Origin: Cereibacter sphaeroides 2.4.1
GTDB lineage: Bacteria > Pseudomonadota > Alphaproteobacteria > Rhodobacterales > Rhodobacteraceae
Assembly (NCBI RefSeq): GCF_000012905.2
Contig: NC_007494.2
Span: 150,001-182,000 of the forward strand
DNA: 32,000 nt
Direction: 5' to 3'
Shown here: piece after piece, positions 9,303 to 32,000 of the stretch
Layout: every line of letters starts with the position of its first letter
Position numbering within the stretch: the stretch's first letter is position 1
Notes under the pieces: model-generated
Seen by the model: the letters and a program-made list of their open reading frames with translations, nothing else
Told to the model about the DNA's origin: nothing
Databases searched by the model: none
Position numbers and translations under genes: made by a program

Positions 9303-10382
9303 TTACCGTGGCAAGGCGTTGCCGGATGGCGCCACCGCAGCGTCGCCGGAGTTTGCCTCGACGATCAGGCTGCGGATGGCCTCCTGCTTGGCGACCACCG
9401 GCGGGGCCAGAACGAACGGGTAGAAGGTCTCATGGCCCATGGCCTCGTTCACGGCATTCAGGGCGATCGTCAGCTCGACCCAGGCCTGTGCGAGGTGCGG
9501 CATCGGTTCGCGCACAAGGCGCTCCAGCCCCTCCGGCATAGCCTGCGGTGCCTTCAGCCCGAAGGCCTGCGCCGTCTCCAGCCCGTCGAGCAGATGGAAG
9601 ACATGCGCCCAGGTCTCGGCGAAATCTTCCCAGGGATGGGCCGTCGCATAGGCCGAGATGTAGCTCTCGGCCCAGTCGGGCGGGGCGCCTTCGGCATAAT
9701 GCGCCTGAAGGGCCGCACCGTAATCCTGCCGGTCGTCGCCGAAGATCGCACGCAGGGTCTCGAGCCGGTCCTGCCGTGCTTCGGTCAGGACATCCCAGTA
9801 GTGGTGGGCCACCTCGTGTCGCAGATGCCCCGTCAGGGTGCGGTAGGGCTCGTTCATCTCCGCCCGGATGCGCTCGCGCTCGGCATCGTCCGCCTCGGCG
9901 ATATTGAGGGTGATCGTGCCCTCTGCATGGCCGGTGAGCACCCGCGGTGCCGTGGCGTCTCCGGTTTCGCCCTTCAGTTCGAACCGGGGGACGGGCATGC
10001 CCGCCTCATCGAAGAGCGGCAGGCCCAGCCGGTGCAGCATCAGGATCAGGGGCCGCTTCACGGTCTCGATCCTCTCCCACCGGTCGATGTTGGCGGGAAC
10101 CGACAGGTCCGGCACCACCGTCGTATGCTGGCAGGACAGGCACAGGGCACCCGGCTCGTCGGCCGACCAGTTGCAGTTGATCTGACCGCGGTTGGCGCAG
10201 GGATGGCCGGTTTCCGCCATGTCCGAGAAGCCCCTGTCCGGGTCGAAGAGCAGCTGGATGCCGCAGGCCAGGCAGGCCGTGTTGCGGAAGAAGATTTCCT
10301 GATGACAGGAGGGGCAGCGATAGCGTTGCACGGGACCGACCGGAGTTGGGAAAGGACCGCGCCCAACGGCGGGCGGCAGCAT
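9303..10382 (-). CDS. zinc-ribbon-domain protein with HExxH putative zinc metallopeptidase domain
   Basis: The N-terminus has CxxC pairs (YRCPSCHQEIFFRNTACLACG and CANRGQINCNW...LCLSCQHT). An HEVAHH (HExxH) motif sits in GHLRHEVAHHYWD, followed by the conserved PWEDFAETWAH. The start is uncertain: ATG 10382 or GTG 10331. The ORF-track start at 11243 is a spurious extension across two other genes. Confidence 0.75.
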   Translation of the reverse strand: MLPPAVGRGPFPTPVGPVQRYRCPSCHQEIFFRNTACLACGIQLLFDPDRGFSDMAETGHPCANRGQINCNWSADEPGALCLSCQHTTVVPDLSVPANIDRWERIETVKRPLILMLHRLGLPLFDEAGMPVPRFELKGETGDATAPRVLTGHAEGTITLNIAEADDAERERIRAEMNEPYRTLTGHLRHEVAHHYWDVLTEARQDRLETLRAIFGDDRQDYGAALQAHYAEGAPPDWAESYISAYATAHPWEDFAETWAHVFHLLDGLETAQAFGLKAPQAMPEGLERLVREPMPHLAQAWVELTIALNAVNEAMGHETFYPFVLAPPVVAKQEAIRSLIVEANSGDAAVAPSGNALPR

Positions 10383-10412
10383 CCGGTTCCCGCCGCAGTC
10401 GGAACCGGATGC

Positions 10413-10460
10413 GCAGAGGCGGCGGCGCGGGAAGAGGCCGGCCCGCGCCGCCGCCTCTGC
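10413..10460 (-). terminator. 19-bp perfect GC-rich stem-loop downstream of the YeaQ/GlsB gene
   Basis: GCAGAGGCGGCGGCGCGGG-N10-CCCGCGCCGCCGCCTCTGC. A second 9-bp hairpin (TCCGGTTCC-N10-GGAACCGGA, 10382-10409) follows and abuts the next start codon. No U-tract. Confidence 0.4.
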
Positions 10461-10510
10461 GTCGGCGGCCGGCCCTCGATTGGGACGCCGGCCGCCGGAC
10501 AGAGTCTGGA

Positions 10511-10765
10511 TCAGCCGCGCTTTCTGGTCACGGCGCCCCAGATCACCAGAAGGACGATGGCGCCGACGATGGCTCCGATGAAGCCCGCGCCTTCGCCGGG
10601 GCCGTACCAGCCCACGGCCTGCCCCAGCCAGGTGGCGACGAGGGCACCCACGATCCCGAGGATCGTGGTCAGGATGAAGCCCGAGGGCTCGTTGTCTCCC
10701 GGGTGGAGAAACTTCGCAATCACGCCGGCGATGAAGCCGATGATGATGGTCCAGATGATGGTCAA
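10511..10765 (-). CDS. GlsB/YeaQ/YmgE-family (transglycosylase-associated) stress membrane protein
   Basis: 84 aa: MTIIWTIIIGFIAGVIAKFL...ILGIVGALVATWLG...GFIGAIVGAIVLLVIW, the characteristic Gly-zipper TM pattern. It uses a TTG start, with GGAGGA 6 nt upstream. Confidence 0.8.
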   Translation of the reverse strand: MTIIWTIIIGFIAGVIAKFLHPGDNEPSGFILTTILGIVGALVATWLGQAVGWYGPGEGAGFIGAIVGAIVLLVIWGAVTRKRG

Positions 10766-10822
10766 GGAGGATCCTCCGCTGAAGGTCTGGCGAGGGAACG
10801 ACGATCCGCGCGCCCGGTTCCC

Positions 10823-11989
10823 TTACTCCGGCGTATCCTGCTCGAGATCGGGCAACGGCGCGCGAGCGCCCAGAAAATTGCCGACCGCATGCAGGGATTC
10901 GACATTGTCGCAGACCACCTTGATGCAGACGAGGAAGGGCACCGCCACGAGCGCTCCCGGAATGCCCCAGAGCCATCCCCAGAAGATCACCGTGACGAAG
11001 ACCGAGACCGTGTTCAGCTCGAGCCTGCGGCCGAGGACGATGGGGGTGACGAGCTGCCCCTCGATGGCGGTGGCCGTGAGGTAGAGCGCGGGCACCAGCA
11101 GCGCCTGCGTCAGGTGATCGTAATGCACGATGGCCACGGCCGCGGACAGCGCAACGCCGGCAATGGCGCCGATGTAGGGCAGGAAGTTCAGAAGGAAGGC
11201 CGCCATGGCCCAGACGAGCGGGCTCGGCATTCCCGTGCCCCACATCAGAAGGCCGATCACCACCCCCAGCCCCGCATTGATGATGGTCACCGACAGGAGG
11301 TAGCGCGAGACGCGCCGCTCGATCCCGTAGACGATGCGCAGGGCGCGCTTCTTGTCGCCGAAGCGGGGGAAGCCCTCGATCAGCTTGATGTAGAACAGGT
11401 CACCCGAGGCGAGCAGAAAAAGCGCCAGCACCAGCGTCACGATGATCGTGGTGAGGATCGAGGCCACGCTGCCGACCGCGGACGACAGGATCCCCGGCGT
11501 CTGCACGGCCACGCGCTGCACCGTCGGATCCTCGCTGTCGGTGATTTCCGAGACCTGCTCCGATGCGTTCCGCACCGCCTCGAACGAGTCGAGGATGGTC
11601 TGGGCCCGCTCGCGCAGCTGATCGCCCAGCCGCGGCGCCTGATTGATCCAGTCCGAGACAGGGCCGCTCAGAAGGAAGGCGCTGACCGCGATGACGGCGG
11701 CGAGGGCGGTGATGAGGGCGGTCGCGGTGATGGGCGGTGCGATGCCGATCCGCTGCAGGGCCCGCACGACCGGGCTGAAGGTCAGCGCCAGCAGAAGGCC
11801 GATCATCAGCGGCAGGACCACGTCGCGGGCGAAATAGAAGCCCATGACCACGAGGACCAGAAGGATGATCCCCAGCAGCCTGCGGATCGCGATCAGGTGG
11901 TTGAGACGGCTGATCTCGTTCTCGGAGGGCACGTCGGGCGCTTCCGGCTCCAGAAGGGTTCCGGCCTCGCCGATCCGCTCGTTCTGCAT
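10823..11989 (-). CDS. AI-2E family transporter (PerM/YhhT-like permease)
   Basis: Multi-TM protein containing FLLNFLPYIGAIAG...GQLVTPIVLGRRLELNTVSVFVTVIFWGWLWGIPGALVAVP, typical of the UPF0118/AI-2E family. I chose the ATG 11989 start (MQNERIG) because the ORF-track extension to 12193 runs into the tRNA gene. Confidence 0.85.
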   Translation of the reverse strand: MQNERIGEAGTLLEPEAPDVPSENEISRLNHLIAIRRLLGIILLVLVVMGFYFARDVVLPLMIGLLLALTFSPVVRALQRIGIAPPITATALITALAAVIAVSAFLLSGPVSDWINQAPRLGDQLRERAQTILDSFEAVRNASEQVSEITDSEDPTVQRVAVQTPGILSSAVGSVASILTTIIVTLVLALFLLASGDLFYIKLIEGFPRFGDKKRALRIVYGIERRVSRYLLSVTIINAGLGVVIGLLMWGTGMPSPLVWAMAAFLLNFLPYIGAIAGVALSAAVAIVHYDHLTQALLVPALYLTATAIEGQLVTPIVLGRRLELNTVSVFVTVIFWGWLWGIPGALVAVPFLVCIKVVCDNVESLHAVGNFLGARAPLPDLEQDTPE

Positions 11990-19938: not shown

Positions 19939-19991
19939 GGACTGGCGAGCTTCGGCTTGCACAGGCGCAACAGTTCGACTATGCATGAATA

Positions 19992-20324
19992 ATGGAAAAG
20001 ACTCACGCTCTGGGTGTCCTGTCTGCCCTTGCCCACGACATCCGGCTGGACGTGTTCCGCCTCCTCGTGCGCGCCGGTCCTGCGGGCATGGCGGCCGGAG
20101 AGATTGCGGCGGGCCTCGACATCCGAGCCAACACGCTGTCGAACAACCTCACCATCCTGACGGGAGCGGGCCTTGTGCGCTCCGAGCGCGAAGGCCGCTC
20201 GATCCGCTATTTCGCGCGGATGGAGACGATGCGGGGGCTGCTGGCCTTTCTCATGGAGGATTGCTGCGGCGGCCGTCCCGAGCTCTGTCAGCCGGTTCTC
20301 GACCGGATCGCCTGCGACTGCTGA
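19992..20324 (+). CDS. arsR: ArsR/SmtB-family arsenic-responsive repressor
   Basis: LSALAHDIRLDVFRLLVRAGPAGMAAGEIAAGLDIRANTLSNNLTILTGAGLVRSEREGRSIRY is a winged helix-turn-helix. The C-terminal Cys cluster is DCCGGRPELC...ACDC. It lies directly upstream of acr3-arsC. Confidence 0.85.
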   Translation: MEKTHALGVLSALAHDIRLDVFRLLVRAGPAGMAAGEIAAGLDIRANTLSNNLTILTGAGLVRSEREGRSIRYFARMETMRGLLAFLMEDCCGGRPELCQPVLDRIACDC

Positions 20325-20359
20325 GTGCACGCATAACCCTGCCCAGAGGCTGAACCAAG

Positions 20360-21412
20360 ATGACCGACCTGCCGCAGACCCAGATCAATCCCCTGGGCCC
20401 GTTCGAGCGCTGGCTGACCCTCTGGGTCGGGCTGGCCATGGTGGCGGGCCTCTCCCTGGGCGTGCTGGCTCCGGGTCTGGTGCAGGTCATCGCCACGGCC
20501 GAGATCGCCTCGATCAACCTCGTCGTCGCCGTGCTGATCTGGGCGATGGTCTATCCGATGATGGTCAACGTGGATTTCGCCGCCGTCGGGGGGGCTGTGC
20601 GGCAGCCGACAGGACTGCTCATCACGCTAGTCGTCAACTGGCTGGTCAAGCCCTTCACCATGGCTCTGCTGGCGGTCCTGTTCTTCGACCTTGTCTTCGC
20701 TCCCTGGATCGCCCCCGAGGATGCGCAGCAGTATATCGCCGGTCTGATCCTGCTGGGCGCCGCGCCCTGCACCGCGATGGTCTTCGTCTGGTCCCAACTG
20801 GTGCGCGGTGATGCGACCTACACGCTGGTGCAGGTGTCGGTAAACGACATGGTGATGGTCGTGGCCTTCGCCCCCATCGTGGCCCTGCTTCTCGGCGTGA
20901 CCGAGATCGTCGTGCCCTGGCAGACGCTGGTCCTGGCGACGATCCTCTATGTCGTCCTGCCGCTGGCGGCAGGGATGCTGACGCGCCGCAGTCTTGGCAC
21001 CCCCGCCCGGATCGAGGCGTTCTCGGCCCGCGTGAAGCCCTGGTCGATGATCGGCCTGATCGCGACGGTCGCGATCCTCTTCGGGCTGCAGGGGCAGACG
21101 ATCCTCGACCGGCCCGCGATCATTGCGCTGATCGCCGTGCCGATCCTGATCCAGAGCTATCTGATCTTTGCCGTGGGTTACGGCGCGGCCTGGCTGATGA
21201 GGGTGCCGCACCGGATCGCGGCGCCGTGCGCCATGATCGGCACCTCGAACTTCTTCGAACTGGCCGTCGCCGTCGCCATCAGTCTCTTCGGCCTCAATTC
21301 GGGCGCGGCGCTGGCAACGGTCGTGGGCGTTCTGGTCGAGGTGCCGGTGATGCTGTCCCTCGTGGCCTTCGCCAACCGCACCCGCGCCCGTTTCCCGGAG
21401 ATCCGCGCATGA
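20360..21412 (+). CDS. acr3: ACR3-family arsenite efflux permease
   Basis: FERWLTLWV..., [28 protein letters not shown] (the conserved ACR3 Cys motif) and [19 protein letters not shown] are all present. Confidence 0.9.
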
Positions 21413-21840
21413 TCGTCATCCACCACAACCCTGCCTGCGGCACGTCGCGCAACGTGCTGGAGATCATCCGCGCGTCCGGCGCCGAGCCGGTCATCATCGA
21501 CTATCTGGCCGAAGGCTGGACACGTCCGCAGCTGCTGGCTCTGCTGGCCGCGGCCGATCTGACGCCGCGTCAGGCGCTGCGGACGTCGAAGTCGCCCGCC
21601 GCCGAACTGGGCCTGTTGGAGGCTGGCGTCACCGACGGGCAGATCCTCGATGCAATGCTCGCCCATCCGGTGCTGGTCAACCGGCCCATCGTGGCCTCGC
21701 CCAGGGGCGTGCGGCTCTGTCGCCCGTCCGAGACCGTGCTGTCGCTTCTGGACCGCCTGCCGGTTGGGCCGCTCTACAAGGAGGACGGGCAGATGATCCT
21801 GAACGAGAGGGGCGAGATCGTCAGCGACCTGCCCACCTGA
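21409..21840 (+). CDS. arsC: glutaredoxin-dependent arsenate reductase (R773 ArsC type)
   Basis: [21 protein letters not shown]...[23 protein letters not shown] matches the E. coli/R773 ArsC catalytic Cys motif (NPACGTSRN) and the C-terminal motif. The ATGA start/stop overlap with acr3 indicates coupling. Confidence 0.9.
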
Positions 21841-22142
21841 ACCCCGACCGACCTGCGAGCATCGATCGGAGCGCCTCGCCCTCATGGTGATGCGCACCGG
21901 CACGTCGGCGAGGCAGGCCTGCAGGTCGAGGCCGCTCGGGTTTGCGCGCTCGGTCAGCGTCATGGCGCGGGCGAGAGTTTCGCCCCGGCGTCACTGCCGG
22001 AAAGGAGCGAGGTCTTCCACCCGATGCCGACGGGCCGCATGGCGCGCCCAGCGGGCGCTCGCCCTTGTCCTCGGACCCATGGCGGACATGTCACGCTGTC
22101 GATGGCCATGCCCAAGGGCGGAAGGATGATGGGCCCGGGCCT

Positions 22143-23090
22143 TCAGGGGCCGCGCAGGGAGAGGGGCGTGAGGATGCGCTCGAACTCGGCGAGCAGGGAC
22201 GCGCCGGCCGAAGCGGGCTCGGGATCCGGGACGTCGGAGGGCACGACACGGGTATGATCGTCGGTATTGCCCCTCTCTGCATCACTCAGGCGGGGATCGT
22301 CGGCGCCTGCGGTCTCGGGGAACAGGGGCGGCCGCACGCTCGCGACGGCTGGCGGCACGGGGTAGAGAAGCGGCTCTCCCCGGCCGGCCGAGATGCTGTT
22401 GGCCACCGTCCTCAGCACGTTGATCCGGTCGGCCGGTGCGGCGACCAGCACGCTCGACCACGCTCCGTCGCGGAGATCCGAGCGCAGGTAGAACACGCCC
22501 AGCCGAAAATCTCCGTCCCCGAAGATGGCGTGGAAGGGCGCGTAGGCCGACCAGACCCGCAGGCGGGACTTCGGCGCGGGGAAGTAGCTGTTCCTGTTCG
22601 GCAGGGCGTTGCGCCGGATGGTGTCTCCGACCGCCTCGGCCGCTACCACCGGCCCGCGCGCGGCATAGATCGCCACCTCGGGGGAGGCGTGGGTCTGCGT
22701 GAAGTTTGGCCCGATCGCTTCGCCGGTGGCGGAATCTCCAGGCACGAGCAGCGAGCCGTCCAGCGCCGGAAGATAGGCGACTTGCCAGCCCGAGGCCGCG
22801 AGCCGTTGGCCTGCGTCGGACAGGAAGCTCTCGACGTCGGAGGCGGTGAGGCGGCAGGGCGGGGCACAGCCGAGCGCCTGTTCGAGCGCGCGTCGGCTCA
22901 TCCCGCCCCACTCTCCGTCGAGCATGCCGTCATAGACGTCCGCAAACGACAGCGCGGCTTGGAGAAAGCGGATCTCGGCGTGCGAGAGGCGGGCGGGGTC
23001 GAAGGGCCGATCCTCCGCCTGCGCCTCCGGGGTCACAAGGAGAAGCGTCAACAGACAAGCGGCCAGCGATCTCATGCCAGGGCGTCTCAT
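22143..23090 (-). CDS. secreted hypothetical protein with an N-terminal peptidoglycan-binding-like (PG_binding_1) repeat
   Basis: The signal peptide is MRSLAACLLTLLLVTPEAQA. AEIRFLQAALSFADVYDGMLDGEWGGMSRRALEQ fits the PG_binding_1 pattern (LQ..L...G.Y.G..DG..G..T..A...FQ). I do not recognise the remaining ~230 aa. An alternative start is ATG 23075. Confidence 0.7.
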   Translation of the reverse strand: MRRPGMRSLAACLLTLLLVTPEAQAEDRPFDPARLSHAEIRFLQAALSFADVYDGMLDGEWGGMSRRALEQALGCAPPCRLTASDVESFLSDAGQRLAASGWQVAYLPALDGSLLVPGDSATGEAIGPNFTQTHASPEVAIYAARGPVVAAEAVGDTIRRNALPNRNSYFPAPKSRLRVWSAYAPFHAIFGDGDFRLGVFYLRSDLRDGAWSSVLVAAPADRINVLRTVANSISAGRGEPLLYPVPPAVASVRPPLFPETAGADDPRLSDAERGNTDDHTRVVPSDVPDPEPASAGASLLAEFERILTPLSLRGP

Positions 23091-23340: not shown

Positions 23341-23679
23341 ATGGCGGTGGCCGCAGGGGCGGGGGCCGTGCTCGCGCTGGCGGGACTGGCGGTCTATGCC
23401 GGGATGGGCGGCTTCTCCGACCCGCCGGCCCCGCAGACGTCCGAGCCGCCGCCCGGTGCCGCCGAGATGCGTGCCATTCCGGCCCCTGCCGAGGAGGCGC
23501 CCGCCGCGAAGCCGGAGGGTGCCGATCCTCAACCCTCCGAGGGAGGCCACGCAGAGCCGGAGGCGCAGCCCCGGAAGGCTGCTGCACCGGAGGCCAGCCC
23601 GGCACCTGCACGACGACCCGCAGCCCGCGAGGGGCATCCGTCCAGGGACAACGCTCCGGCCAGAGCGGACGAGATCTGA
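23341..23679 (+). CDS. small single-pass membrane protein with a Pro/Ala/Glu-rich tail (first ORF of the kinase operon)
   Basis: 112 aa. The N-terminal hydrophobic helix AVAAGAGAVLALAGLAVYAG is followed by a low-complexity P/A/E-rich region. The stop overlaps the kinase start (TGATG at 23677-23681). An in-frame stop at 23284 limits upstream extension. The RBS is weak and the composition low-complexity, hence moderate confidence. Confidence 0.45.
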   Translation: MAVAAGAGAVLALAGLAVYAGMGGFSDPPAPQTSEPPPGAAEMRAIPAPAEEAPAAKPEGADPQPSEGGHAEPEAQPRKAAAPEASPAPARRPAAREGHPSRDNAPARADEI

Positions 23680-24800
23680 TGACCGAGCCGCGCCTTCCCA
23701 ACGGCACGCGCATCGCCGGCCATGTCATCACGGACCAGATCGGCCGGGGCGGGTTCGGGATCACCTACCGGGCGAACGTGCTCGAGACCGGCGCCACCGT
23801 CGCGCTGAAGGAATACTTCCCCTGCGACATGGCCCATCGCGATGCGCAGGGCTTCGTCCGCCCGCTGCCCAGGGCCGAGCGGATGTACGAGGAGGGTCTG
23901 CGGGCCTTCATCACCGAGGCGAACATCCTGAAGGCGCTGCCGCAGCAGGCCGGTCTGGTGCGGGTGCGCGGCGCCTTCGAGAAGTTCGGCACCGCCTATT
24001 GCGCGATGGATTTCATCGAGGGCGAGCCGCTCAGCCGTCTCGCGCAGGCCACGCTCCAGCGCACCGGCTTCATCGCCGAGGATCTGCTGCGCAGCTTCCT
24101 CGCCCCGATCTGCCTCGCGCTCGAGACGGTTCATTCGACGAACCTCGTCCACCGCGATGTGAAGCCCGCCAACATCATGATCTCGCGCCGCGACCAGCAG
24201 CCGATCCTGATCGACTTCGGCGCCGCGCGCCCCTCGGGGCAGCGCGGGTCGCTCGCGATGTTCACCCGCAGCTACGCCCCGGTCGAGCTGTTCCCCCGCG
24301 CGCAGGTGCGTTCGGCGCAGCCCTTGGAGGAGGGGCCGTGGAGCGACATCTATTCGCTGTCCGTCATGCTCTACGAGATGGCGACGCGGCAGCTGCCCCC
24401 CAGCGCGCCCGACCGGGCGGCGGCGGTCGCCGCGGGGGCGCCCGACCCTTACGTCCCGCTGACGGCGCTTCTTGCGCAGCGGCGGCTGCGCGGCAGCTAC
24501 TCGCCCGCCTTCGCCTCGGCGGTCGATGCCGGCTGCGCGCTCTGGCCCGAGGCGCGGCCGCGGACGGTACGCCAGTTCGCCTACATGGCCGGCGTCGAGA
24601 TGGGGTCCGCTCCGCCGCCGACGCCGCGCCGAACCGTCACCGGGGCCGCTCCCTCGCCCTCCTCGTCGGTTCCGCGCAGCCAGCGACGCCCCGTGAACCG
24701 CCAGTCCATCGCCATGGTGCTCCTGATGCTGCTGATCGCGGGGGCGGCGGTGTCCTATGGCGTCGTCTCGCGCCAGCCCGACTGGGTGGCCTACCGATGA
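23679..24800 (+). CDS. Hanks-type Ser/Thr protein kinase 1, C-terminally membrane-anchored
   Basis: Kinase motifs present: G-loop IGRGGFGITY, VALKEY Lys, catalytic loop HRDVKPANIM (24150-24173), DFG (LIDFGAAR), SYAPVE, and WSDIYSLSVMLYEM. The C-terminal TM is SIAMVLLMLLIAGAAVSYGVV, with only about 10 residues beyond it. The ORF-track start 21942 is a spurious 579-codon extension. Confidence 0.9.
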   Translation: MTEPRLPNGTRIAGHVITDQIGRGGFGITYRANVLETGATVALKEYFPCDMAHRDAQGFVRPLPRAERMYEEGLRAFITEANILKALPQQAGLVRVRGAFEKFGTAYCAMDFIEGEPLSRLAQATLQRTGFIAEDLLRSFLAPICLALETVHSTNLVHRDVKPANIMISRRDQQPILIDFGAARPSGQRGSLAMFTRSYAPVELFPRAQVRSAQPLEEGPWSDIYSLSVMLYEMATRQLPPSAPDRAAAVAAGAPDPYVPLTALLAQRRLRGSYSPAFASAVDAGCALWPEARPRTVRQFAYMAGVEMGSAPPPTPRRTVTGAAPSPSSSVPRSQRRPVNRQSIAMVLLMLLIAGAAVSYGVVSRQPDWVAYR

Positions 24801-26011
24801 TGAGACTTCTCTGCGCGCTTGTCGGATTGCTCTGGGCCGCGGCCGCCGCGGCACAGGATTTCAGCGCCGTCGCCCGGCTGACCGACGCCTCGGTGGGCCG
24901 GATCTTCGTGGACCTTCCTCGCGGAATGAGGACCGGCGCCGGCATGGTCTTCGGCCAGGGCGCCGGGGGCAGGCTGCTGTACCTGACCAATTTCCATGTT
25001 GTTCAGAACGGCGGCGACATTGCCGTCTTCTTCAAGAACGGCGATGCGATCTCGATCTACAGCGGCACGGTCCTTGCCGTCTCGCAGGAGAAGGACCTGG
25101 CGGCGCTGAGCCTCGACCCCGAGGAGATCGGCACGCCCTCGCCCCCGCCTCTCGCCATCGACACGCGACGGCTCGCGAAAGGCGAGGCCGTGGTGGCCAT
25201 CGGCTATCCCGCCGCGGCCGACGCCACCATGGGGCGCGACATGAACATCGCCGCCTTCGAGACCACGCTGACCGGCGGCAGCGTCAGCCGCGTGCTGAAC
25301 GGCTCCTGGCGCGGGGCCTCGGCCGAGCTTGAGATCGTCCAGCACACCGCGCCGCTCAGCCCCGGCAATTCCGGCGGACCGCTGCTCGACCGGTGCGGGC
25401 GGGTGATCGGGGTGAACACGATGATTGCGACGGACGCGGCCGGGATCTACCTCGCCGCCTCGGCCGGCACCATCGCGGACTTTCTGGCCGAGGCCGGGCT
25501 TCCGATGCAGACGGCCGGCGGCAGTTGCGGCGGAGAGCCGGCCTCTCCGGCTGCGGCGCCACCGGCTGCCACGGTGACGGACGGCCGGGTGCCGATCTGG
25601 ATGATCCTCGGCGGAACCGGCGCCGCGCTGGCTTTGGTCATGGCCGCGATGGCGGTTGCGGCCGGCGGCCGGGGTGGCGAGCCCGCGGCGCCCCGGGTCG
25701 CGCTGACGCTGACCATCGCCACGGGCGGATCGCGCCAGCGGTGCGGCATCGGACGGGCGAGCCTGCAACGCGGCGTCATCCTCGGACGCGGCGGCGCGGC
25801 CGAGGTGGCGATCGACAGCCCGCGCGTCAGCCGCGAGCATCTGCGGCTGACGCTCGAGGGGCGGCGGCTGATGGCGACGGACCTCGGTTCGACCAACGGG
25901 ACGATGGTCGACGGCAGGCCGCTGCCGCCGAACCAGCCGCGGCAGGTGGGCGAGGCCACGGTTCTGGTGCTGGGCGGCGAGGTCGAGATCCGGCTGAGGG
26001 CGGGGTCATGA
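24797..26011 (+). CDS. trypsin-like (S1/HtrA-type fold) serine protease domain - TM helix - FHA domain fusion protein
   Basis: The signal peptide is MMRLLCALVGLLWAAAAAAQD. Catalytic triad candidates are His67 (TNFHVV), Asp100 (EKDLAAL) and Ser192 (GNSGGPLLD). The TM helix is residues 266-290 (VPIWMILGGTGAALALVMAAMAVAAG). The FHA hallmarks are ILGRG...VSREH...DLGSTNGTMVDG. The ATGA overlap with the kinase 1 stop indicates coupling. Confidence 0.85.
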   Translation: MMRLLCALVGLLWAAAAAAQDFSAVARLTDASVGRIFVDLPRGMRTGAGMVFGQGAGGRLLYLTNFHVVQNGGDIAVFFKNGDAISIYSGTVLAVSQEKDLAALSLDPEEIGTPSPPPLAIDTRRLAKGEAVVAIGYPAAADATMGRDMNIAAFETTLTGGSVSRVLNGSWRGASAELEIVQHTAPLSPGNSGGPLLDRCGRVIGVNTMIATDAAGIYLAASAGTIADFLAEAGLPMQTAGGSCGGEPASPAAAPPAATVTDGRVPIWMILGGTGAALALVMAAMAVAAGGRGGEPAAPRVALTLTIATGGSRQRCGIGRASLQRGVILGRGGAAEVAIDSPRVSREHLRLTLEGRRLMATDLGSTNGTMVDGRPLPPNQPRQVGEATVLVLGGEVEIRLRAGS

Positions 26012-26727
26012 AGGATCTGGCGCCCCCCGATCTGGCGGCATCGGACGCGGTCGCCGACATCCGCGATCTTTCGGTCCGGCTGGGAGAGCGGTTCGAGGTG
26101 ACGATCGAGCGGCTCTCGGTCGCCCCCGGCGAGGTTCTGGTGCTGGATGCGCCCAGCGGCAGCGGCAAGAGCACGGTGCTCGGGCTGGTCGCGGGGGCGG
26201 TTGCGCCTCAGGCGCGGCCGGTGCGGCATCGGGTGGCGGGGCACGATCTGGCCGTGGCGTCGCGCCCGCCGGGGCCGGCGGCGGTGGGCTTCGTGCTCCA
26301 GACACATGCGCTGGTGCCCTATCTGACCATGGGCGACAACATCGGTCTGCCGTCGCGCATCGCGCGGCTGCGGGTGGCGCCGGACTGGGCACGAGAGGTG
26401 GTGGTCTCGCTCGGCCTTGTCGATCTGATGGACCGCTTTCCGGCGCAGCTATCGGTGGGCCAGCGCCAGCGCGCGGCCGTGGCGCGCGCGATGCTCGCGC
26501 GGCCGCGGCTGCTGCTGCTGGACGAGCCGGTCTCGGCCCTCGACCCCGCCAATGTCCGCGCAGTGGAGGAGCTGATCCTGCGCCTTGCCGGGGAGGCGGG
26601 CTCGGCCGTGCTGCTCGCGGGCCACCAGATCGCGGGAAGCGCCTTTGCCGCCTGCCGCCGCGTGCGACATCGGGTGGAGGTTGCGGGCGCAGTGACGCGC
26701 TCGGTCTTCCGGTCGGAGGCGGTCTGA
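26008..26727 (+). CDS. ABC transporter ATP-binding protein (LolD/MacB/TagT-like)
   Basis: Motifs present: Walker A APSGSGKST, Q-loop FVLQTHALVPYLT, signature LSVGQRQR (a G-to-V variant of LSGGQ), Walker B LLLLDEP, D-loop SALD and H-loop AGHQ. It overlaps the previous stop by ATGA. GAGGG lies about 9 nt upstream. Confidence 0.85.
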   Translation: MKDLAPPDLAASDAVADIRDLSVRLGERFEVTIERLSVAPGEVLVLDAPSGSGKSTVLGLVAGAVAPQARPVRHRVAGHDLAVASRPPGPAAVGFVLQTHALVPYLTMGDNIGLPSRIARLRVAPDWAREVVVSLGLVDLMDRFPAQLSVGQRQRAAVARAMLARPRLLLLDEPVSALDPANVRAVEELILRLAGEAGSAVLLAGHQIAGSAFAACRRVRHRVEVAGAVTRSVFRSEAV

Positions 26728-27917
26728 TGCCGCTGCCCCTCGTTCTGGCGCTGCGCGAGCTGCGGCACGACTGGATCTCGGCGCTCTGCTTCGTGGCGGC
26801 GCTGGTGGGCGTGCTGGCGCCCATGCTGATCCTGCTCGCGCTGAAGACGGGTGCGCTCGACACGATGGTCGAGCGGCTGGTCGACGATCCGGCGAACCGC
26901 GAACTGCTGGCGGTGGGGGCCGGCGCGTATGACGAGGGCTTCTTCCGCTGGCTGGAGGCGCGGCCCGAGGCGGGGTTCGTCGTCCCCGCCACGCGCAGCA
27001 TCAACGCCCTTGCGGATGCGGTCGTGGCCTCCGCTCCCCGCCGCGAGATGGTGCGGGAGGTGCCGCTGGTGGTTTCGGCCGCGGGCGATCCGCTGCTGGC
27101 GGGGGAGGTAGGGCCGGGCCGGGTCTGGCTGAGCGCGCAGCTTGCGAAGTCGCTGGGGGTGGCGCCCGACGCGGTGCTGACGATGGTGATCGGACGGCGC
27201 ATCGACGGCCTCGAGCAGACGGCGCGGCGACCGCTGAAGGTGGCGGGGATCGTTCCGGCCGAGCGCTACGGTCGCTCGGCGCTGTTCCTCTCGCTGCCGG
27301 ACATGCTGGCGATCGAGCGGTTCCGCGACGATCCCGCCGTCACGCCCGAAAGCTGGCTGGAGATTGCCGCGCCGCCTGCGGCCTTTGCCAGCTTCCGCCT
27401 CTATGCGCGGACTCTCGCGGATCTCGGGCCGCTCTCGGCGGCGCTGGAGGGGCGCGGTGTTGCGGTGCGCCCCCGCGCCGAGAATGCGGCGCTGTTGCTG
27501 CAGCTGCGGCGGGGCGCGGATCGTCTGTATCTTGCGGTCGCCGCATTGGCCGCCGCCGGATTCTGGGCCGCGATGAGCGCCAATCTCCGCGGCATGGTGG
27601 AGCGGCGGAGGCTGGCCTTCAGCCTGCTGCGGATGCTGGGCCTGACGCCCGTCCAGCGCGCGACGGTTCCGCTGATCCAGAGCCTCGTGCTGATCGGGAC
27701 CGGGCTCGGGCTCTCGCTTGCCCTCGTTCTGCCGGCGCTGGCGCTGATCAACGCGAGCTTTCCCTCCGTGACCGAAGGGGCGGCGCTCGCGCGCCTCAGG
27801 CCGGACCAGTTGGGGGGGGCGGCTGCGCTTGCCTGCGTGACGGCGCTGACCGCGGCGCTCTGGGCGATGGCGGCGGTGCTGCGGATCCCGAGCGAGGAGG
27901 TGTTGCGTCATGGCTAG
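26727..27917 (+). CDS. FtsX-like ABC transporter permease (MacB/LolCE/TagS-type: TM1, large periplasmic domain, three C-terminal TMs)
   Basis: The N-terminal LALRELRHDW plus TM1 is typical of the FtsX family. A roughly 215-aa extracytoplasmic region follows. The C-terminal three-TM FtsX module includes ...RRRLAFSLLRMLGLTPVQ.... A GGAGG RBS is present. TGATG overlaps the ATPase stop. Confidence 0.8.
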   Translation: MPLPLVLALRELRHDWISALCFVAALVGVLAPMLILLALKTGALDTMVERLVDDPANRELLAVGAGAYDEGFFRWLEARPEAGFVVPATRSINALADAVVASAPRREMVREVPLVVSAAGDPLLAGEVGPGRVWLSAQLAKSLGVAPDAVLTMVIGRRIDGLEQTARRPLKVAGIVPAERYGRSALFLSLPDMLAIERFRDDPAVTPESWLEIAAPPAAFASFRLYARTLADLGPLSAALEGRGVAVRPRAENAALLLQLRRGADRLYLAVAALAAAGFWAAMSANLRGMVERRRLAFSLLRMLGLTPVQRATVPLIQSLVLIGTGLGLSLALVLPALALINASFPSVTEGAALARLRPDQLGGAAALACVTALTAALWAMAAVLRIPSEEVLRHG

Positions 27918-29526
27918 GGCATGGGGTCTTGCGCTGGCGATCCTCTTGGCCGCGCCGCCCGCCGCGGCGGGCGGGATCACGGTGGACGAGACATACTGGA
28001 ACCCGCAGCCGGCCGAGGGCGACCTCGTGCTGCCGATGCCCTGCGGCGGCGCGATGGCATTCCGCCCGGTGGCGACACCCAATGCCGACGGTGCGGTGGG
28101 CGACGTTCCGGTCATCCTCGGTCGCGAGGACGAGGACCAGCCCTATCTGGACGGCACGCGGCGCTCCTATGTCTCGGGAGGGTTTCCGGGGACGGGCGAG
28201 GCGGAAGCCAAAGCCATGTTTTACATGGCGAAATACGAGATCGCCGAGGCGCAGTACCGTGCGGTGACGGAAGGCTGCCCGCAGAAGGAGCCGCGCCGGC
28301 GCGACTTCCTGCCGGTAACGGGCGTGACGAAGACCGAGCTTGACGCCTTCGCGCAGGCCTTGACGGTCTGGCTGATGCGGAACGCGCCGGAAAGCGTCGC
28401 CCTCGCCGGTGCGGCGCCGGCCCATCTGCGGCTTCCGACCGAGGAGGAGTGGGAGTTCGCCGCCCGGGGCGGTCTTGCCGTCGATCCGGCGCTGTTCCGC
28501 GGCGCGCTGCCGCCGATCCCGCCCGGTCACGCGGCATCGGAATACATCGCGCATGGCGGCAACGACAGCGCGGGCGGCAAGGTGCAGGCGATCGGAACGC
28601 TGGCGCCGAACCCGCTCGGGCTGCACGACATGCTGGGCAACGTCTCGGAATATGTGCTCACCCCCTTCGCGATGGTGCGCCACGGGCGGCTGCACGGTCA
28701 GGCCGGCGGCTACGTCAAGCGCGGCGGCGATGCGCGCACGCCGCTCGAGCAGATCACCAGCGCAACCCGGTTCGAGGTGCCTCCCTTCGACGCGCATTCG
28801 AAGGATGTGACGCGCGAGGCTTTCACCGGGGGGCGGCTCGTGCTGTCCGCGCTTTCGATCACCTCGGCCGAGCAGGCGAAGGCGGTCGCGGCGGCGCTCG
28901 AGACCCTGTCGCGGGCCGACCCTGCGCTCGACTCGGCGGCCTCGGAGGCCGAGGTTCTGGCGCTGCTCGACCGGCTTCAGCGCGAGGCCGGCGATGCCGC
29001 CGACCGCAGCCGCTTTGCCACCATCGCCCGGACGATCCGCGAGGCCCGCGCCGAGACGAATGCGCAGCGCGACCGGACCATCCGGATGATCCTCGGCTCG
29101 TCGGTGCTGACCTGCGACCAGATCGTGCAGCGCTACCTGAACGCGCTTGCCATCGCGGCGCTGGTGCCGAGCTACGACGGGCTGGCCGCCGAGGCCGAGG
29201 CGAGCGGCGACACCGCACTGGCGCAGGAGGTGGCCGAGGCCCGGGCCGAGGCCGAGACGAAGCTGCGCGAGATGGAGGAAGCGGTCGGCCGCGAAAGCGT
29301 CGACTATGCCAACCTGATCGAGGGCCTTTCGGCCGAATTCTCGCAGGAGCTGCTGGCGGCGCAGATCGCGGCCGTGCGGGACGAGCACGAGAGCCGCGGC
29401 CCTCGGCGCGGCGCCTGCCTCGGCGCGGTGCAGGCCCATCTCGACCGGCGGGCCCGGAGCGGGATGAACGACCTCGCCGCCATCCGGTCCGACATGCAAC
29501 AGATCGCGGCCGCGCAGGCCCGCTAA
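27910..29526 (+). CDS. secreted FGE-sulfatase (SUMF1/TagR-like) domain protein with a long Ala/Glu-rich helical C-terminal region
   Basis: The signal peptide is MARAWGLALAILLAAPPAAAGG. FGE-family motifs are RLPTEEEWEFAARGG (28429-28473), NPLGLHDMLGNVSEYV and VKRGG. The roughly 220-aa C-terminal part is coiled-coil-like. It overlaps the permease gene by 8 nt. A GAGGAGG RBS is present. Confidence 0.85.
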   Translation: MARAWGLALAILLAAPPAAAGGITVDETYWNPQPAEGDLVLPMPCGGAMAFRPVATPNADGAVGDVPVILGREDEDQPYLDGTRRSYVSGGFPGTGEAEAKAMFYMAKYEIAEAQYRAVTEGCPQKEPRRRDFLPVTGVTKTELDAFAQALTVWLMRNAPESVALAGAAPAHLRLPTEEEWEFAARGGLAVDPALFRGALPPIPPGHAASEYIAHGGNDSAGGKVQAIGTLAPNPLGLHDMLGNVSEYVLTPFAMVRHGRLHGQAGGYVKRGGDARTPLEQITSATRFEVPPFDAHSKDVTREAFTGGRLVLSALSITSAEQAKAVAAALETLSRADPALDSAASEAEVLALLDRLQREAGDAADRSRFATIARTIREARAETNAQRDRTIRMILGSSVLTCDQIVQRYLNALAIAALVPSYDGLAAEAEASGDTALAQEVAEARAEAETKLREMEEAVGRESVDYANLIEGLSAEFSQELLAAQIAAVRDEHESRGPRRGACLGAVQAHLDRRARSGMNDLAAIRSDMQQIAAAQAR

Positions 29527-29544: not shown

Positions 29545-29808
29545 ATGCGGGATTTTCTGAACAAGTCGCTCGCCGTCCTGATCTGGATCGCCACCGGCTT
29601 CAACGTCGCCCTGTCCTGCTACACCGGCGCGATGATCATCCGCTATTCGCCGATGCAGCTGATGGGTGACAGCACGGTGATCCTCTACGGCTTCCTGTTC
29701 ATCCTTTTCGGGGTGACGCTGTCTCTGGTCTTCGCAGGCATCTGCTTCCAGATCATGGACATCCGCACCTTCACCAAGCATGTCGCGCTGAACCAGCGCC
29801 GAGTGTGA
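29545..29808 (+). CDS. small two-TM membrane protein, no recognised family
   Basis: 87 aa with two hydrophobic helices: SLAVLIWIATGFNVALSCYTGAMII and VILYGFLFILFGVTLSLVFAGICF. A strong GAAGGAG RBS lies 8 nt upstream. It sits between the FGE and kinase 2 genes with 18-nt and 7-nt gaps. Confidence 0.6.
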   Translation: MRDFLNKSLAVLIWIATGFNVALSCYTGAMIIRYSPMQLMGDSTVILYGFLFILFGVTLSLVFAGICFQIMDIRTFTKHVALNQRRV

Positions 29809-29815
29809 CGGCGGG

Positions 29816-31099
29816 GTGACGGCGATGGCGAGCGAACTCCAGCCCGGCGACGTGATCCAGGACACCTACCGCGTCGAGGCGCGGCTGGGGCAGGGCGGCA
29901 TGGGCACGACCTGGCGCGGCGTGAACCTCACGACGCAGGACGTGGTGGCGATCAAGGTGATGACGCCCGAGATCGCGCTGGTGCCCAAGGCGGTCGAGCT
30001 GTTCCGCCGCGAGGCGCAGCTCTTGCGCAAGGTCCAGAGCGACGCGGTGATCCGCTACGAGACCACGCTTCAGGACCGCGAGGGACGGCTGTACCTGATC
30101 ATGGAGTTCGTCGACGGCCAGCCGCTGTCGCATTACCTCGAGCGCGGGGCGCGGCTCGCGCCCGGCGACGTGCTGCGGCTGGGGCGGCGGATGGCGGGGG
30201 CGCTGGCGGCGATCCACGCGCTCGGCATCGTGCACCGCGACGTGGCGCCCGACAACATCATGCTGCCCGACGGCGACATCGGCCATTGCAAGCTGATCGA
30301 CTTCGGGCTCGCCTCGAACACCTCGGGGACCGAGGCCTCGATCATCGGGGCGAGCTATGCCGGGAAGTACTCCTATTCCTCGCCCGAGCAGTTCGGGCTG
30401 CACGGGGCGCGGGTGGGGCCGGCCTCCGACATCTACTCGCTGGGCCTTGTGCTGATGAAGGTCTGCGGGCTGAAGGTGCCGGGCGAGGGGATGGGCATGG
30501 CCGCGGTCGAGGTGCGGCGGGAGAACGTGACGATCCCGCGGGATGCGGGCCTGCCTCCGGCGCTGGCGCGGCTGCTCGAAGCGATGCTGCGCACCCGGCC
30601 CGACGAACGCCCCGCCGATCTGCAGAAGCTGTTCGCCGAGGCGGCGCCGGGGCTGGAACGGGCGGCGCCGGCCCGCACGCCCCGCCGATCGGGTCTGGCG
30701 CTTGCGGCCGGTGCGGGCGTTCTGGCCGCCGCGGGGGCGGGCCTGTGGTTCGCCCTGCCGTATCTCGACACGCCCCCGGGCAGCCGCGTGGTCACCGATG
30801 CCCGCGCGGTTGTGGCCGCCCATGATCCGCTTGCTGAAATCGAAAGCCGCTTCGCCGCGGGCGATGTCGAGACGGCCTTCGCAAGCCTGATGGCGCTGGC
30901 GAACGATCAGGCCGGCCCGCCCGAGACCCGGAGGCAAGCCTATTTTGCGCTGGGGCGGATGTACGATCCGGCCAGTTTCAACGCCAGCCGCAGCCCGTTC
31001 AAGGCGCCCAATGCCTCGGCCGCGCGGCGGAACTATCAGGCGGCTGCGGACCTCGGCTCGGCCGAGGCGCGGCAAGCCCTTGTCCTGCTGAGAGAATGA
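29816..31099 (+). CDS. Hanks-type Ser/Thr protein kinase 2 - TM - periplasmic Sel1/TPR-like repeat domain
   Basis: Kinase motifs present: G-loop LGQGGMGTTW, VAIKVM Lys, catalytic loop HRDVAPDNIM (30233-30256), DFG (LIDFGLA), YSSPEQ and ASDIYSLGLVLM. The TM is GLALAAGAGVLAAAGAGLWFAL. The C-terminal AYFALGRMYDP...ARRNYQAAADLGSAEARQAL is Sel1-like. The start is GTG 29816 or ATG 29825. Confidence 0.9.
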   Translation: MTAMASELQPGDVIQDTYRVEARLGQGGMGTTWRGVNLTTQDVVAIKVMTPEIALVPKAVELFRREAQLLRKVQSDAVIRYETTLQDREGRLYLIMEFVDGQPLSHYLERGARLAPGDVLRLGRRMAGALAAIHALGIVHRDVAPDNIMLPDGDIGHCKLIDFGLASNTSGTEASIIGASYAGKYSYSSPEQFGLHGARVGPASDIYSLGLVLMKVCGLKVPGEGMGMAAVEVRRENVTIPRDAGLPPALARLLEAMLRTRPDERPADLQKLFAEAAPGLERAAPARTPRRSGLALAAGAGVLAAAGAGLWFALPYLDTPPGSRVVTDARAVVAAHDPLAEIESRFAAGDVETAFASLMALANDQAGPPETRRQAYFALGRMYDPASFNASRSPFKAPNASAARRNYQAAADLGSAEARQALVLLRE

Positions 31100-32000
31100 C
31101 GATGCTGCGCCTGCTGGTCCTGGTTCTGAGCCTCGCCGCCACCGCCCTTTGGGCCGGGGATGTCCGTCCGCTGGTCATGGAGGGCAAGTCCGCCCTGCCG
31201 CAGCGCGTTCTGGTGCGCGAGGCGGGCGAGCGTCTGGAGACGCCCGGCGGCCGGTCTCTGGGGCCGGTCGTGCCGCTGCAGCAGTTCTACGTCTATGCGC
31301 GTCAGGACGGCTGGGTGAAGGTCGGGCCGGGGCAGGATGGGAGCGATCTGGGCTGGCTGCCGGCCCAAGAGGTGGCCGACTGGAACCAGAACATCGTGGC
31401 CACGCTGGAGGTGACGGCGGGGCTGGAACGCACGCTGTTCTTTTCCGACTTTGATGCCGCCTATGAGGTGGTCGAGGCCGAGGACCCGGGCCGCGACGCG
31501 GCCGCGCTGCGCGCCGAGGCCGAGGCGGCCGAGCAGAGCGGGGCGCCCTCCGACCGCATCGTTGCGCTGGGGCCGCGCGAGGCGATCGACCAGCGGCAGC
31601 GGCTGCACGTCCTGCCGATCCTCTCGGCCGAGGAGGCGCTGTTCGAAAGCGGCGCCTTCGTGAACCTGCTGAAGGTGGCGGTGGCGCGCGCGCAGGCGCC
31701 GTCGGAGGCCGCGCAACCCATCGGCCAGCCGATGCGCGCGGGCATCGTCTTCGTCGTCGACACCACGCATTCCATGGCGCCGTACATCAGCGCCACCCGC
31801 GATGCGCTGCGCGAGGTCTATGGCGAGGTGGCGGCCGCGGGTCTGAGCGACCGGGTGTCCTTCGGTCTGGTGGGCTATCGCGACAGCCTGAAGGGCCAGC
31901 CGGCACTGGACTATGCTGCGCGCACCTTCGTCACCCTCGAGGAGGGGCGGACGGCCGAGGGCTTCCTCGCCGGGATCGCGCAGATGTCCGAGGCGACAGC
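31096..32000 (+). CDS. secreted von Willebrand factor A (vWA) domain protein, N-terminal part (runs off the right window edge)
   Basis: Absent from the ORF track because it is open to the window edge; I translated it by hand. The signal peptide is MTMLRLLVLVLSLAATALWAG. A possible SH3b-like segment is FYVYARQDGWVKVGPGQDGSDLGWLPAQEV. The vWA beta1/MIDAS region is AGIVFVVDTTHSMAPYI (31759-31773), followed by RVSFGLVGYRD. ATGA overlaps the kinase 2 stop. Confidence 0.8.
   Translation, partial: MTMLRLLVLVLSLAATALWAGDVRPLVMEGKSALPQRVLVREAGERLETPGGRSLGPVVPLQQFYVYARQDGWVKVGPGQDGSDLGWLPAQEVADWNQNIVATLEVTAGLERTLFFSDFDAAYEVVEAEDPGRDAAALRAEAEAAEQSGAPSDRIVALGPREAIDQRQRLHVLPILSAEEALFESGAFVNLLKVAVARAQAPSEAAQPIGQPMRAGIVFVVDTTHSMAPYISATRDALREVYGEVAAAGLSDRVSFGLVGYRDSLKGQPALDYAARTFVTLEEGRTAEGFLAGIAQMSEAT

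Follow-up and report, generated by a model that had tools for sequence, protein, structure and literature searches.

A predicted transmembrane protease-FHA protein in a Hanks-kinase operon of Cereibacter sphaeroides 2.4.1: a candidate link between cytoplasmic phosphorylation and periplasmic proteolysis

The 32,000-nucleotide stretch of Cereibacter sphaeroides 2.4.1 analysed here (contig NC_007494.2, positions 150,001 to 182,000; "the window" below, with a GC content of about 70%) carries, at 24797-26011 on the forward strand, a gene whose product places a predicted periplasmic trypsin-like protease and a predicted cytoplasmic FHA domain on either side of a single transmembrane (TM) helix. The gene lies behind a Hanks-type Ser/Thr kinase (kinase 1) and ahead of an ABC ATPase, and overlaps both: its ATG (24797-24799) forms an ATGA with the stop codon of kinase 1 (TGA, 24798-24800), and at the other end an overlap of the same kind joins its TGA (26009-26011) to the start codon of the ATPase gene, an ATG at 26008. 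A reading of the bare sequence that preceded this work, hereafter the original prediction, had proposed a single polypeptide made up of a signal peptide, a trypsin-like protease, a TM helix and an FHA domain, ATGA-coupled to kinase 1. The coupling is evident from the codons just given, and domain matches, diagnostic residues and a structural model agree on the polypeptide. The gene and its parts are as follows.

24797-26011, forward strand: protease-TM-FHA gene, 404 aa, uninterrupted translation.
24797-24853, forward strand: signal peptide-like N-terminus (MMRLLCALVGLLWAAAAAA, then QD after the cut); hydrophobic window 1-19, model helix 2-18.
24893-25492, forward strand: predicted periplasmic protease domain of chymotrypsin fold, PDZ-less and HtrA/DegS/MarP-like (Trypsin_2 match, Foldseek).
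25595-25663, forward strand: predicted single TM helix, aa 267-289 (model helix; Kyte-Doolittle 2.05).
25697-26002, forward strand: predicted cytoplasmic FHA domain, aa 301-402 (FHA match, conserved residues, model).

Both domains score far above their Pfam cut-offs: Trypsin_2 (PF13365) reaches 88 bits over aa 47-206 (E=1.1e-24; cut-off 27.6), and FHA (PF00498) 53 bits over aa 327-393 (E=4.7e-14; cut-off 20.7). The catalytic triad is encoded at 24995-24997 (H67), 25094-25096 (D100) and 25370-25372 (S192, within GNSGGP), and the FHA domain presents G330-R331, S345-R346-x-H348 and N367-G368; these are the triad and FHA residues that had been named beforehand, found where they had been placed. 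In an AlphaFold2 model built on 31 homologs (mean pLDDT 86.2), a helix at aa 2-18 is followed by a beta-rich protease (33-232), a disordered stretch (247-266), a second helix (267-289) and a beta-sandwich (301-402). The FHA region is beta-rich throughout aa 301-402 at pLDDT 90-98, and the linker at aa 247-266 is of low complexity and low model confidence. The limits first suggested for the protease (24884-25492), the helix (25592-25666) and the FHA domain (25703-25996) fit this model closely. In its chymotrypsin-like fold, His-Asp-Ser triad and GNSGG motif the protease domain is like the HtrA/DegP/DegS family (MEROPS S1C), and its triad, being intact and conserved, makes it apparently catalytically competent. 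Likewise, a beta-sandwich bearing the G-R, S-x-x-H and N-G residues marks the C-terminal region as a canonical FHA domain, apparently competent to bind phosphothreonine. Since this domain begins only about ten residues past the TM helix, it would lie close up against the cytoplasmic surface of the membrane. The signal cleavage site given above is a probable one, placed from the Ala-rich c-region.

Several independent features of the family support an N-out/C-in bitopic inner-membrane protein. Counted over the 15 residues that border the TM helix, lysine and arginine are unevenly distributed, with 40 on the protease side versus 103 on the FHA side among 33 homologs, and 182 versus 488 among 145 diverse representatives of the family. 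Two cysteines, C200 (25394-25396; eight residues past the catalytic Ser) and C244 (25526-25528; just before the TM linker), are both present in 137 of these 145 representatives, with one retained in a single case and neither in seven, and in the 16 closest homologs they are the sole cysteines past the signal segment. A co-occurring pair found only on the protease side has the pattern of a periplasmic disulfide. The phosphorylation that FHA domains need is, moreover, ATP-dependent and hence cytoplasmic. The signal-like N-terminus, the charge bias, the protease-side cysteines and the cytoplasmic site of phosphorylation thus jointly argue for a protease outside and an FHA domain inside, which is the topology that the original prediction had drawn.

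An immediate concern with any new domain combination is that two genes may have been fused by a sequencing or assembly error, which the original prediction had itself pointed to as a hazard around 25500-25700. This can practically be dismissed. A public collection contains the identical protein in 107 blocks, among them several complete assemblies of C. sphaeroides chromosome 2, and the architecture recurs well beyond the species. A family profile built from 31 members and searched against 1.84 billion cluster representatives gave 8171 matches with E<=1e-30; all of the top 150 align from end to end, at 319 bits or more. The continuous order signal-protease-TM-FHA is found in 128 of the 145 diverse representatives, and it is this conservation of one uninterrupted architecture across the family that excludes a fusion artefact. 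Comparable results were obtained on a smaller scale: about 40 of the best 120 matches in a word-indexed homology search carry both PF13365 and PF00498, and each of 38 homologs inspected presents, in order, a hydrophobic N-terminus, GNSGG, a TM segment and the FHA motifs. The contig scan made with the family alignment was swamped by ordinary HtrA proteases by way of the generic GNSGGPL, and yielded two useful full-length loci, in Tabrizicola (L007) and Hyphomicrobium (L008); our view of the taxonomic spread of the family rests on protein-cluster names.

Conservation within the family falls on the residues expected of working domains. Among 31 homologs of 24-87% identity, H67, S192, G190-L196, G330, S345, H348, D362 and S365 are invariant, and D100 and R331 are kept in at least 90%; the phosphothreonine-binding residues of the FHA domain are all either invariant or kept at that level. 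In distant orthologs each of the two domains retains about 40-50% identity, and the linker and TM helix drift. Judged by this pattern, both domains look functional. Variation on the basic plan also occurs: about 21 of the 145 representatives carry a second FHA domain after the TM helix and reach lengths of 530-590 aa, and one profile match (P0075) has the reversed order, with its protease at the C-terminus. No match spanning at least 80% of the protein was found among PLSDB plasmids by tblastn.

The Trypsin-TM-FHA architecture is thus not rare, and its public annotation is generic, members being named "trypsin-like peptidase domain-containing protein" or "FHA domain-containing protein". Our literature searches found no published characterisation of it, in keeping with the initial remark that this was not a characterised architecture. 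The sole published combination of trypsin and FHA domains that these searches brought up is NP_811686.1 of Bacteroides thetaiotaomicron, an FHA-FHA-Trypsin protein included in an inventory of serine proteases in prokaryotes from 2008 (PMC2605481). Its FHA domains are N-terminal, the opposite order to that described here, and it is listed without analysis, topology or kinase linkage.

The nearest entries by sequence to the protease domain in the PDB are HhoA, Deg1 and HtrA1/HtrA2. By structure, the top Foldseek matches are M. tuberculosis Rv3671c/MarP (3k6y ranking first) and the protease domain of E. coli DegS (E about 1e-14, target-normalised TM-score 0.73-0.82), with matches to DegS, DegQ and HtrA1 at E about 1e-13. 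DegS and MarP share with the protein a chymotrypsin fold, the triad, GNSGGP, an inner-membrane tether and a periplasmic location of the protease. They differ from it in their anchors, which are N-terminal in DegS and consist of four N-terminal TM helices in MarP, as opposed to the single C-terminal TM helix seen here; neither has a cytoplasmic FHA domain, and the protease-FHA protein has no PDZ domain detectable with Pfam or NCBIfam. Its scores also remain below the curated NCBIfam equivalog cut-offs for HhoA/HhoB/HtrA (70.5 vs 450 bits) and DegS (37.5 vs 408), and below that of the MarP family NF033740 (45.2 bits vs 250), to which the likeness is confined to the fold. For the FHA domain, the best NCBIfam match is FhaB_Rv0019c (E=7e-9, 35.9 bits vs a cut-off of 125, a likeness at the level of the domain), and the PDB matches are the Rv0020c FHA structures 3po8, 2lc1 and 3oun. 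These M. tuberculosis proteins, FhaB/FipA (Rv0019c) and FhaA (Rv0020c), hold an FHA domain at the membrane where it reads kinase phosphothreonine, as we propose here; unlike the protease-FHA protein, they have no extracytoplasmic enzyme domain.

The gene belongs to a translationally coupled operon of eight genes, all of whose junctions overlap or are less than 20 nt apart. The protease-FHA gene is the second of the eight, and the others, in order, are the following.

23679-24800, forward strand: kinase 1, Hanks-type Ser/Thr kinase, 373 aa (Pkinase E=1.1e-29).
26008-26727, forward strand: ABC ATPase, in a TagT-like slot (ABC_tran E=2.1e-22; Walker A GSGKST, signature LSVGQ, Walker B LLLDEP).
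26727-27917, forward strand: FtsX/MacB-type permease, in a TagS-like slot (weak FtsX match, E=0.0029).
27910-29526, forward strand: predicted secreted FGE-sulfatase-domain protein, in a TagR-like slot (FGE-sulfatase E=9.6e-25; signal-like segment).
29545-29808, forward strand: 87-aa membrane protein with two TM helices (51-87% identity in orthologous operons).
29825-31099, forward strand: kinase 2, Hanks-type (Pkinase E=1.2e-39).
31096-32000, forward strand, leaving the window: predicted secreted vWA-like protein, in the slot of the PpkA periplasmic region, seen here as the N-terminal 301 of the 631 aa of its full-length record in L002 (DxTxS 31759-31773).

Kinase 1 retains its G-loop, VALK, HRDVKPAN (24150-24173) and DFG motifs and appears active on that basis. 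It is tail-anchored, with one C-terminal TM helix (aa 344-362) and about 11 periplasmic residues. Kinase 2, which public records start at the ATG at 29825 and not at the GTG at 29816, has a single TM helix (aa 291-309) and, in the periplasm, a domain of some 115 aa that resembles Sel1 by eye and has no Pfam Sel1 match; its activation loop contains a conserved T-x-G-T. Its catalytic loop reads HRDVAPDN (30233-30256, aa 137-144), with Ala in place of the Lys of HRDxKxxN, and HRD[IV]APDN is found in five of five orthologs; the substitution could point to changed catalysis or to a specialised function.

Among the remaining products, the ABC ATPase finds its best NCBIfam matches in the DevA, FtsE, LolD and YbbA types. 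The permease has four TM helices with a periplasmic loop of about 230 aa between TM1 and TM2, and its homologs carry PF02687 and PF12704 (MacB_PCD). The FGE-sulfatase protein, having no Cys at residues 123-402, offers nothing that could serve as the Cys pair of an FGE active site; it is therefore probably a non-catalytic binding protein, and its C-terminal extension of about 250 aa is long and probably helical. The 631-aa protein is encoded by a gene separate from, and ATGA-overlapping with, that of kinase 2. Its own sequence gave nothing in Pfam at E<=0.001 and no sequence relative in the PDB, and its assignment to the vWA class consequently rests on orthologs, which are named "vWA domain-containing protein" (NCBI) or "serine/threonine-protein kinase PpkA" (JGI), of which many carry PF00092 and one gives weak VWA matches around DxTxS. 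Apart from the protease, no other obvious output domain was found among the Pfam and NCBIfam matches of the operon.

A convergent gene follows the operon downstream. The 22 kb upstream hold unrelated functions: a cation diffusion facilitator transporter, a methyl-accepting chemotaxis protein, glutathione S-transferases, ZinT, a LysR-type regulator and an ars operon. The last (19989-21843, forward strand; an ArsR-type HTH_20 protein, an ACR3/SBF-family permease and ArsC) lies just upstream of the kinase cluster, and is apparently unrelated to it. An open reading frame at 9303-11243 on the reverse strand encodes a putative metallopeptidase (Zn_ribbon_DZR_6 plus Peptidase_Mx, E=9e-91), and composition is slightly atypical around 10-12 kb (AT skew 0.15).

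The company kept by Trypsin-TM-FHA genes elsewhere is informative. In each of the ten neighbourhoods examined a Hanks kinase lies no more than three genes away, and a PP2C phosphatase is present in seven of the ten. The kinase neighbours support the functional link to Hanks kinases that had first been suggested from the FHA domain and the ATGA overlap. The type of kinase that travels with the gene is that of kinase 1 and not kinase 2, with 33-37% identity as against 27-29% to the partner kinases in Thiorhodovibrio (L006) and Hyphomicrobium (L008). The eight-gene core itself is syntenic in four sources, of which L007 is from Tabrizicola sp. M-4, L005 and L088 are metagenomic contigs and L087 is from a second Cereibacter lineage. 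Identities are 36-63% for the protease-FHA protein and 44-87% for the other seven products, and a range of 36-57% applies to the core in Tabrizicola and in metagenomic contigs; one further contig has the same gene order by gene calls.

Beyond this Rhodobacteraceae arrangement the gene occurs in several settings. In Hyphomicrobium zavarzinii ATCC 27496 (L008 7479-15039) it is paired with a Hanks kinase that bears a C-terminal DUF4189, and this two-gene module is inserted between bamB and der/engA, within an otherwise conserved yfgM-bamB-der neighbourhood. In Thiorhodovibrio frisius (L006 10001-14579) it lies among a kinase, a PP2C, vWA-FHA and FHA proteins and MotA/ExbB, and in a Bryobacterales metagenome-assembled genome (MAG; L091 3981-15473) among two PP2C, FHA proteins, MotA/ExbB, a kinase and a TPR-CHAT (caspase-like) protein. 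Small FHA proteins, one or two PP2C and MotA/ExbB thus make up a second recurrent type of cluster, in Bryobacterales and Thiorhodovibrio, distinct from the Rhodobacteraceae operon. A Pseudomonadota MAG (L092 5547-8425) has two tandem Trypsin-TM-FHA paralogs beside a kinase, an FHA protein and a PP2C.

Comparison with related clusters further suggests that the operon of this strain is incomplete. All of the clusters named above as sharing the gene order of the core carry five extra genes upstream of it. These encode four products of about 245, 150, 520 and 200 aa, of which the first is a glycine-zipper protein (sub-threshold matches to Rick_17kDa_Anti and Gly-zipper_YMGG) and the third a vWA-FHA protein, and a membrane-anchored PP2C; most of the clusters also have a divergent FHA-RDD gene. 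In the window, the place of these genes is taken by a single short reading frame.

23341-23679, forward strand: orf112, probable remnant of the TM helix and Pro-rich C-terminal tail of a PP2C, at the edge of a deletion (48% identity across 61 aa, matching residues 271-330 of the L087 PP2C, a 377-aa protein).

DNA similarity between the window and the L087 cluster begins only at 23666, and the 315-aa gene at 22143-23090 (reverse strand) matches the gene that flanks that cluster. On account of the remnant, the abrupt start of similarity and the flanking-gene match, we regard the operon of this strain as a 5'-deleted, phosphatase-less derivative. The deleted segment of about 4.8 kb would have held the glycine-zipper, 150-aa, vWA-FHA and 200-aa genes and most of the PP2C gene.

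The set of components calls to mind the threonine-phosphorylation pathway of a type VI secretion system (T6SS). In the H1-T6SS of P. aeruginosa, TagQ (an outer-membrane lipoprotein), TagR (periplasmic) and TagS/TagT (an ABC-like complex) activate PpkA, which phosphorylates Fha1/TagH in a reaction reversed by PppA; TagR, TagS and TagT belong to COG1262 (the FGE-sulfatase class), COG4591 and COG1136, respectively (PMC13584744), and TagQ has been likened to the Rickettsia 17-kDa antigen (PMC3608642), whose glycine-zipper family is the one weakly matched by the first gene of the extended clusters. Candidates for the component classes of this pathway are found in the operon as the FGE protein (TagR), the permease and ATPase (TagS/TagT), kinase and vWA protein (PpkA) and an FHA reader. 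The naming by JGI, the PF00092 domains of orthologs and the weak VWA matches make kinase 2 and the 631-aa protein look like a split PpkA. Counterparts of PppA (PP2C) and TagQ are absent from the window, except for the PP2C-tail remnant; in orthologous clusters, as opposed to this strain, a PP2C and the glycine-zipper protein occupy the PppA and TagQ slots. The operon also departs from the Pseudomonas pathway in having two kinases, and in that its FHA domain is fused across the membrane to a periplasmic protease, Fha1/TagH being soluble. The individual parts are all of known kinds, and it is the trans-membrane combination and the T6SS-free, TagQRST/PpkA-like setting that are new variants.

Related cassettes occur in yet other company. 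A 2013 paper labels srfABC-linked genes in T6SS-less, host-associated Deltaproteobacteria as tagQ/R/S/T and ppkA (PMC3608642), and in three alphaproteobacterial or metagenomic contigs (L089 7376-12836, L090 6307-12848 and L093 7214-12773) we found a four-gene cassette of distant homologs of the vWA, ATPase, permease and FGE proteins (29-45% identity) directly after SrfB (PF07520) and SrfC (SrfC/Virul_Fac, PF10139). In L089 SrfC is followed by a 346-aa gene with a match to the periplasmic domain of kinase 2, and in L093 a 471-aa gene takes that place. Unlike the C. sphaeroides operon, the srfABC-linked cassettes that we examined have neither a Trypsin-TM-FHA gene nor a Hanks kinase domain. Since such homologs sit beside SrfB/SrfC and in T6SS-less Deltaproteobacteria, the cassette appears to be modular and not tied to the T6SS.

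FHA domains are readers of phosphorylation, and information runs from the kinase to the FHA-bearing protein. On balance, we think that the protease-FHA protein probably serves as the FHA "reader" of a membrane-bound Ser/Thr phosphosignalling module with kinase 1 as its conserved partner. We attach a similar, better-than-even degree of belief to the proposal that its FHA domain docks on kinase phosphothreonine and so couples kinase phosphorylation to periplasmic proteolysis, with the protease as the output of the pathway. In such a scheme, the periplasmic sensors (FGE-like protein, vWA protein and the loop of the ABC permease) would activate the kinases, which would autophosphorylate on Thr; the FHA domain would dock on the phosphothreonine of kinase 1, kinase 2 or both, and this would bring in the periplasmic protease, cluster it or switch it allosterically. 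The protease might then cleave a periplasmic or envelope target, perhaps one of the system's own periplasmic components, and would constitute a built-in output in place of the T6SS assembly that lies downstream of Fha1. We favour this inside-out flow because FHA domains read, because the FHA protein of the Pseudomonas pathway is an output, and because the operon already encodes candidates for periplasmic sensors. As to how a signal might cross the protein, we can only speculate that the Cys pair, which would tie the TM-entry segment to the strand after the catalytic Ser, offers a plausible conformational route. A docking site "TPRR" before the TM helix of both kinases was considered and rejected, as the juxtamembrane regions are not conserved among five orthologs of each.

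A more ambitious form of this reading can be entertained only tentatively, and we think it much more apt to fail than to hold. It would have a periplasmic protease gated by phosphorylation, inside-out through a single TM helix, and forming in Rhodobacteraceae the output of a stand-alone envelope-damage sensor of the TagQRST/PpkA type; the T6SS pathway of Pseudomonas would then be a specialised offshoot of a widespread envelope-surveillance module that usually ends in periplasmic proteolysis.

Several observations count against our interpretation. The protease-FHA protein, at 36-38% identity, is less well conserved than any other product of the operon (50-57%). In this strain the operon is without a phosphatase, vWA-FHA gene and TagQ-like gene, and may signal differently or be partly decayed. 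Kinship to TagR/S/T/PpkA of P. aeruginosa is putative, being drawn from shared Pfam and COG families, the JGI naming and the labels of the 2013 paper. The binding of FHA domain to kinase, the phospho-acceptor site, the activity of the protease and its substrate are all hypothetical, and with "TPRR" not conserved in orthologs no docking site is identified. Lastly, C. sphaeroides has a T6SS elsewhere with an Fha of its own (PMC3953482), which leaves room for control in trans.

That last point leads to one of three competing explanations. The operon could be the threonine-phosphorylation input, or an additional one, to the distant T6SS, with the protease-FHA protein as an accessory regulator. Its components do match TagR/S/T/PpkA/Fha in type, the Fha ortholog just mentioned exists, being reported for R. 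sphaeroides and separate from this locus (PMC3953482), and a review lists TagR/S/T in "Pseudomonas (H1), Rhodobacter" (PMC13584744), where the Rhodobacter entry could not be traced; the main text of the 2009 in-silico survey of T6SS, for its part, mentions neither Rhodobacter nor the tag COGs. We nonetheless hold a T6SS role to be improbable. No T6SS core gene (TssA-M, Hcp, VgrG) was found in the window, within 10 kb on either side in C. sphaeroides or in five further clusters with conserved synteny. Genomes without a T6SS also have related cassettes (PMC3608642), as do SrfB/SrfC loci, and Trypsin-TM-FHA genes are present in Acidobacteriota and other contexts where T6SS genes are not visible. 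Even less credence, in our judgement, is due to a role in biological conflict, anti-phage or abortive, with the protease as a toxic effector that kinase signalling releases. Such a role would accord with matches of the kinase and protease domains to the defence models mad6, PD-T4-6 and RT-Protease, with the recurrence of FGE, vWA, trypsin and FHA domains in the conflict systems of PMC7159879, and with the insertion of the Hyphomicrobium module into a housekeeping bamB-der locus and the CHAT protease neighbour in Bryobacterales. The matches in PADLOC-DB v2, however, are generic ones to kinase, protease and ABC domains, and the FGE, permease, vWA and 87-aa proteins match nothing there; the operon has no MoxR, STAND or other NTPase core, its predicted effector-side domains are all periplasmic and not cytoplasmic, PLSDB plasmids hold no full-length homolog, and the neighbouring genes have ordinary metabolic or resistance functions. 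With generic domain matches only, identification of the operon as a known defence system was rejected, and the conflict-system paper of Kaur et al. (2020) does not describe the operon, SrfB/C or MacB/FtsX components. Judged on context, then, a T6SS role in trans and phage defence are both less likely.

The direction of signalling is a closer question. Substrate changes the oligomeric state of HtrA-family proteases, and the protease could therefore be a periplasmic sensor for kinase 1, binding or cleavage of a substrate outside clustering the FHA-bound kinases inside and driving trans-autophosphorylation, such that the two proteins would make up a two-chain receptor kinase. With about 11 periplasmic residues, kinase 1 needs an external sensor; kinase and protease-FHA protein form a pair on their own in Hyphomicrobium zavarzinii; the closest folds include that of DegS, an envelope-stress-sensing protease; and dimerisation switches on Hanks kinases, PpkA among them (PMC13584744). 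Set against these points, binding by an FHA domain requires prior phosphorylation, so that the arrangement would amplify a signal and not start it, and sensor candidates are already at hand in the FGE-like protein, the vWA protein, the domain of kinase 2 and the permease loop. Partner kinases elsewhere have periplasmic domains of their own (DUF4189 in Hyphomicrobium, Lcl_C in Thiorhodovibrio), and the protease-FHA protein has no PDZ or other peptide-sensing domain. We accordingly regard outside-in signalling as doubtful, albeit with a chance that deserves to be taken seriously, and retain docking of the FHA domain on a phosphorylated kinase, with proteolysis as its consequence, as our preferred account.

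Bacterial Hanks kinases and FHA domains control cytoplasmic targets, and periplasmic HtrA-type proteases are controlled by PDZ domains and periplasmic ligands. If our account is correct, the family described here would be a route by which cytoplasmic phosphorylation controls extracytoplasmic proteolysis, or the reverse. The family is also a large one, with thousands of cluster representatives and no published work that we could find. To our knowledge, TagQRST sensing and PpkA activation have been studied only inside the T6SS locus of Pseudomonas. The C. sphaeroides operon offers the same types of parts in a genetically tractable host, with no T6SS attached and with an enzyme of its own as a candidate read-out, and nature has provided, in this strain, a variant that lacks the phosphatase. 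Finally, the joining of the vWA/ABC/permease/FGE cassette to SrfB/SrfC elsewhere suggests a modular periplasmic sensing unit that may be common to several poorly understood systems, and by which the srfABC system would be linked to TagRST/PpkA-like sensing.

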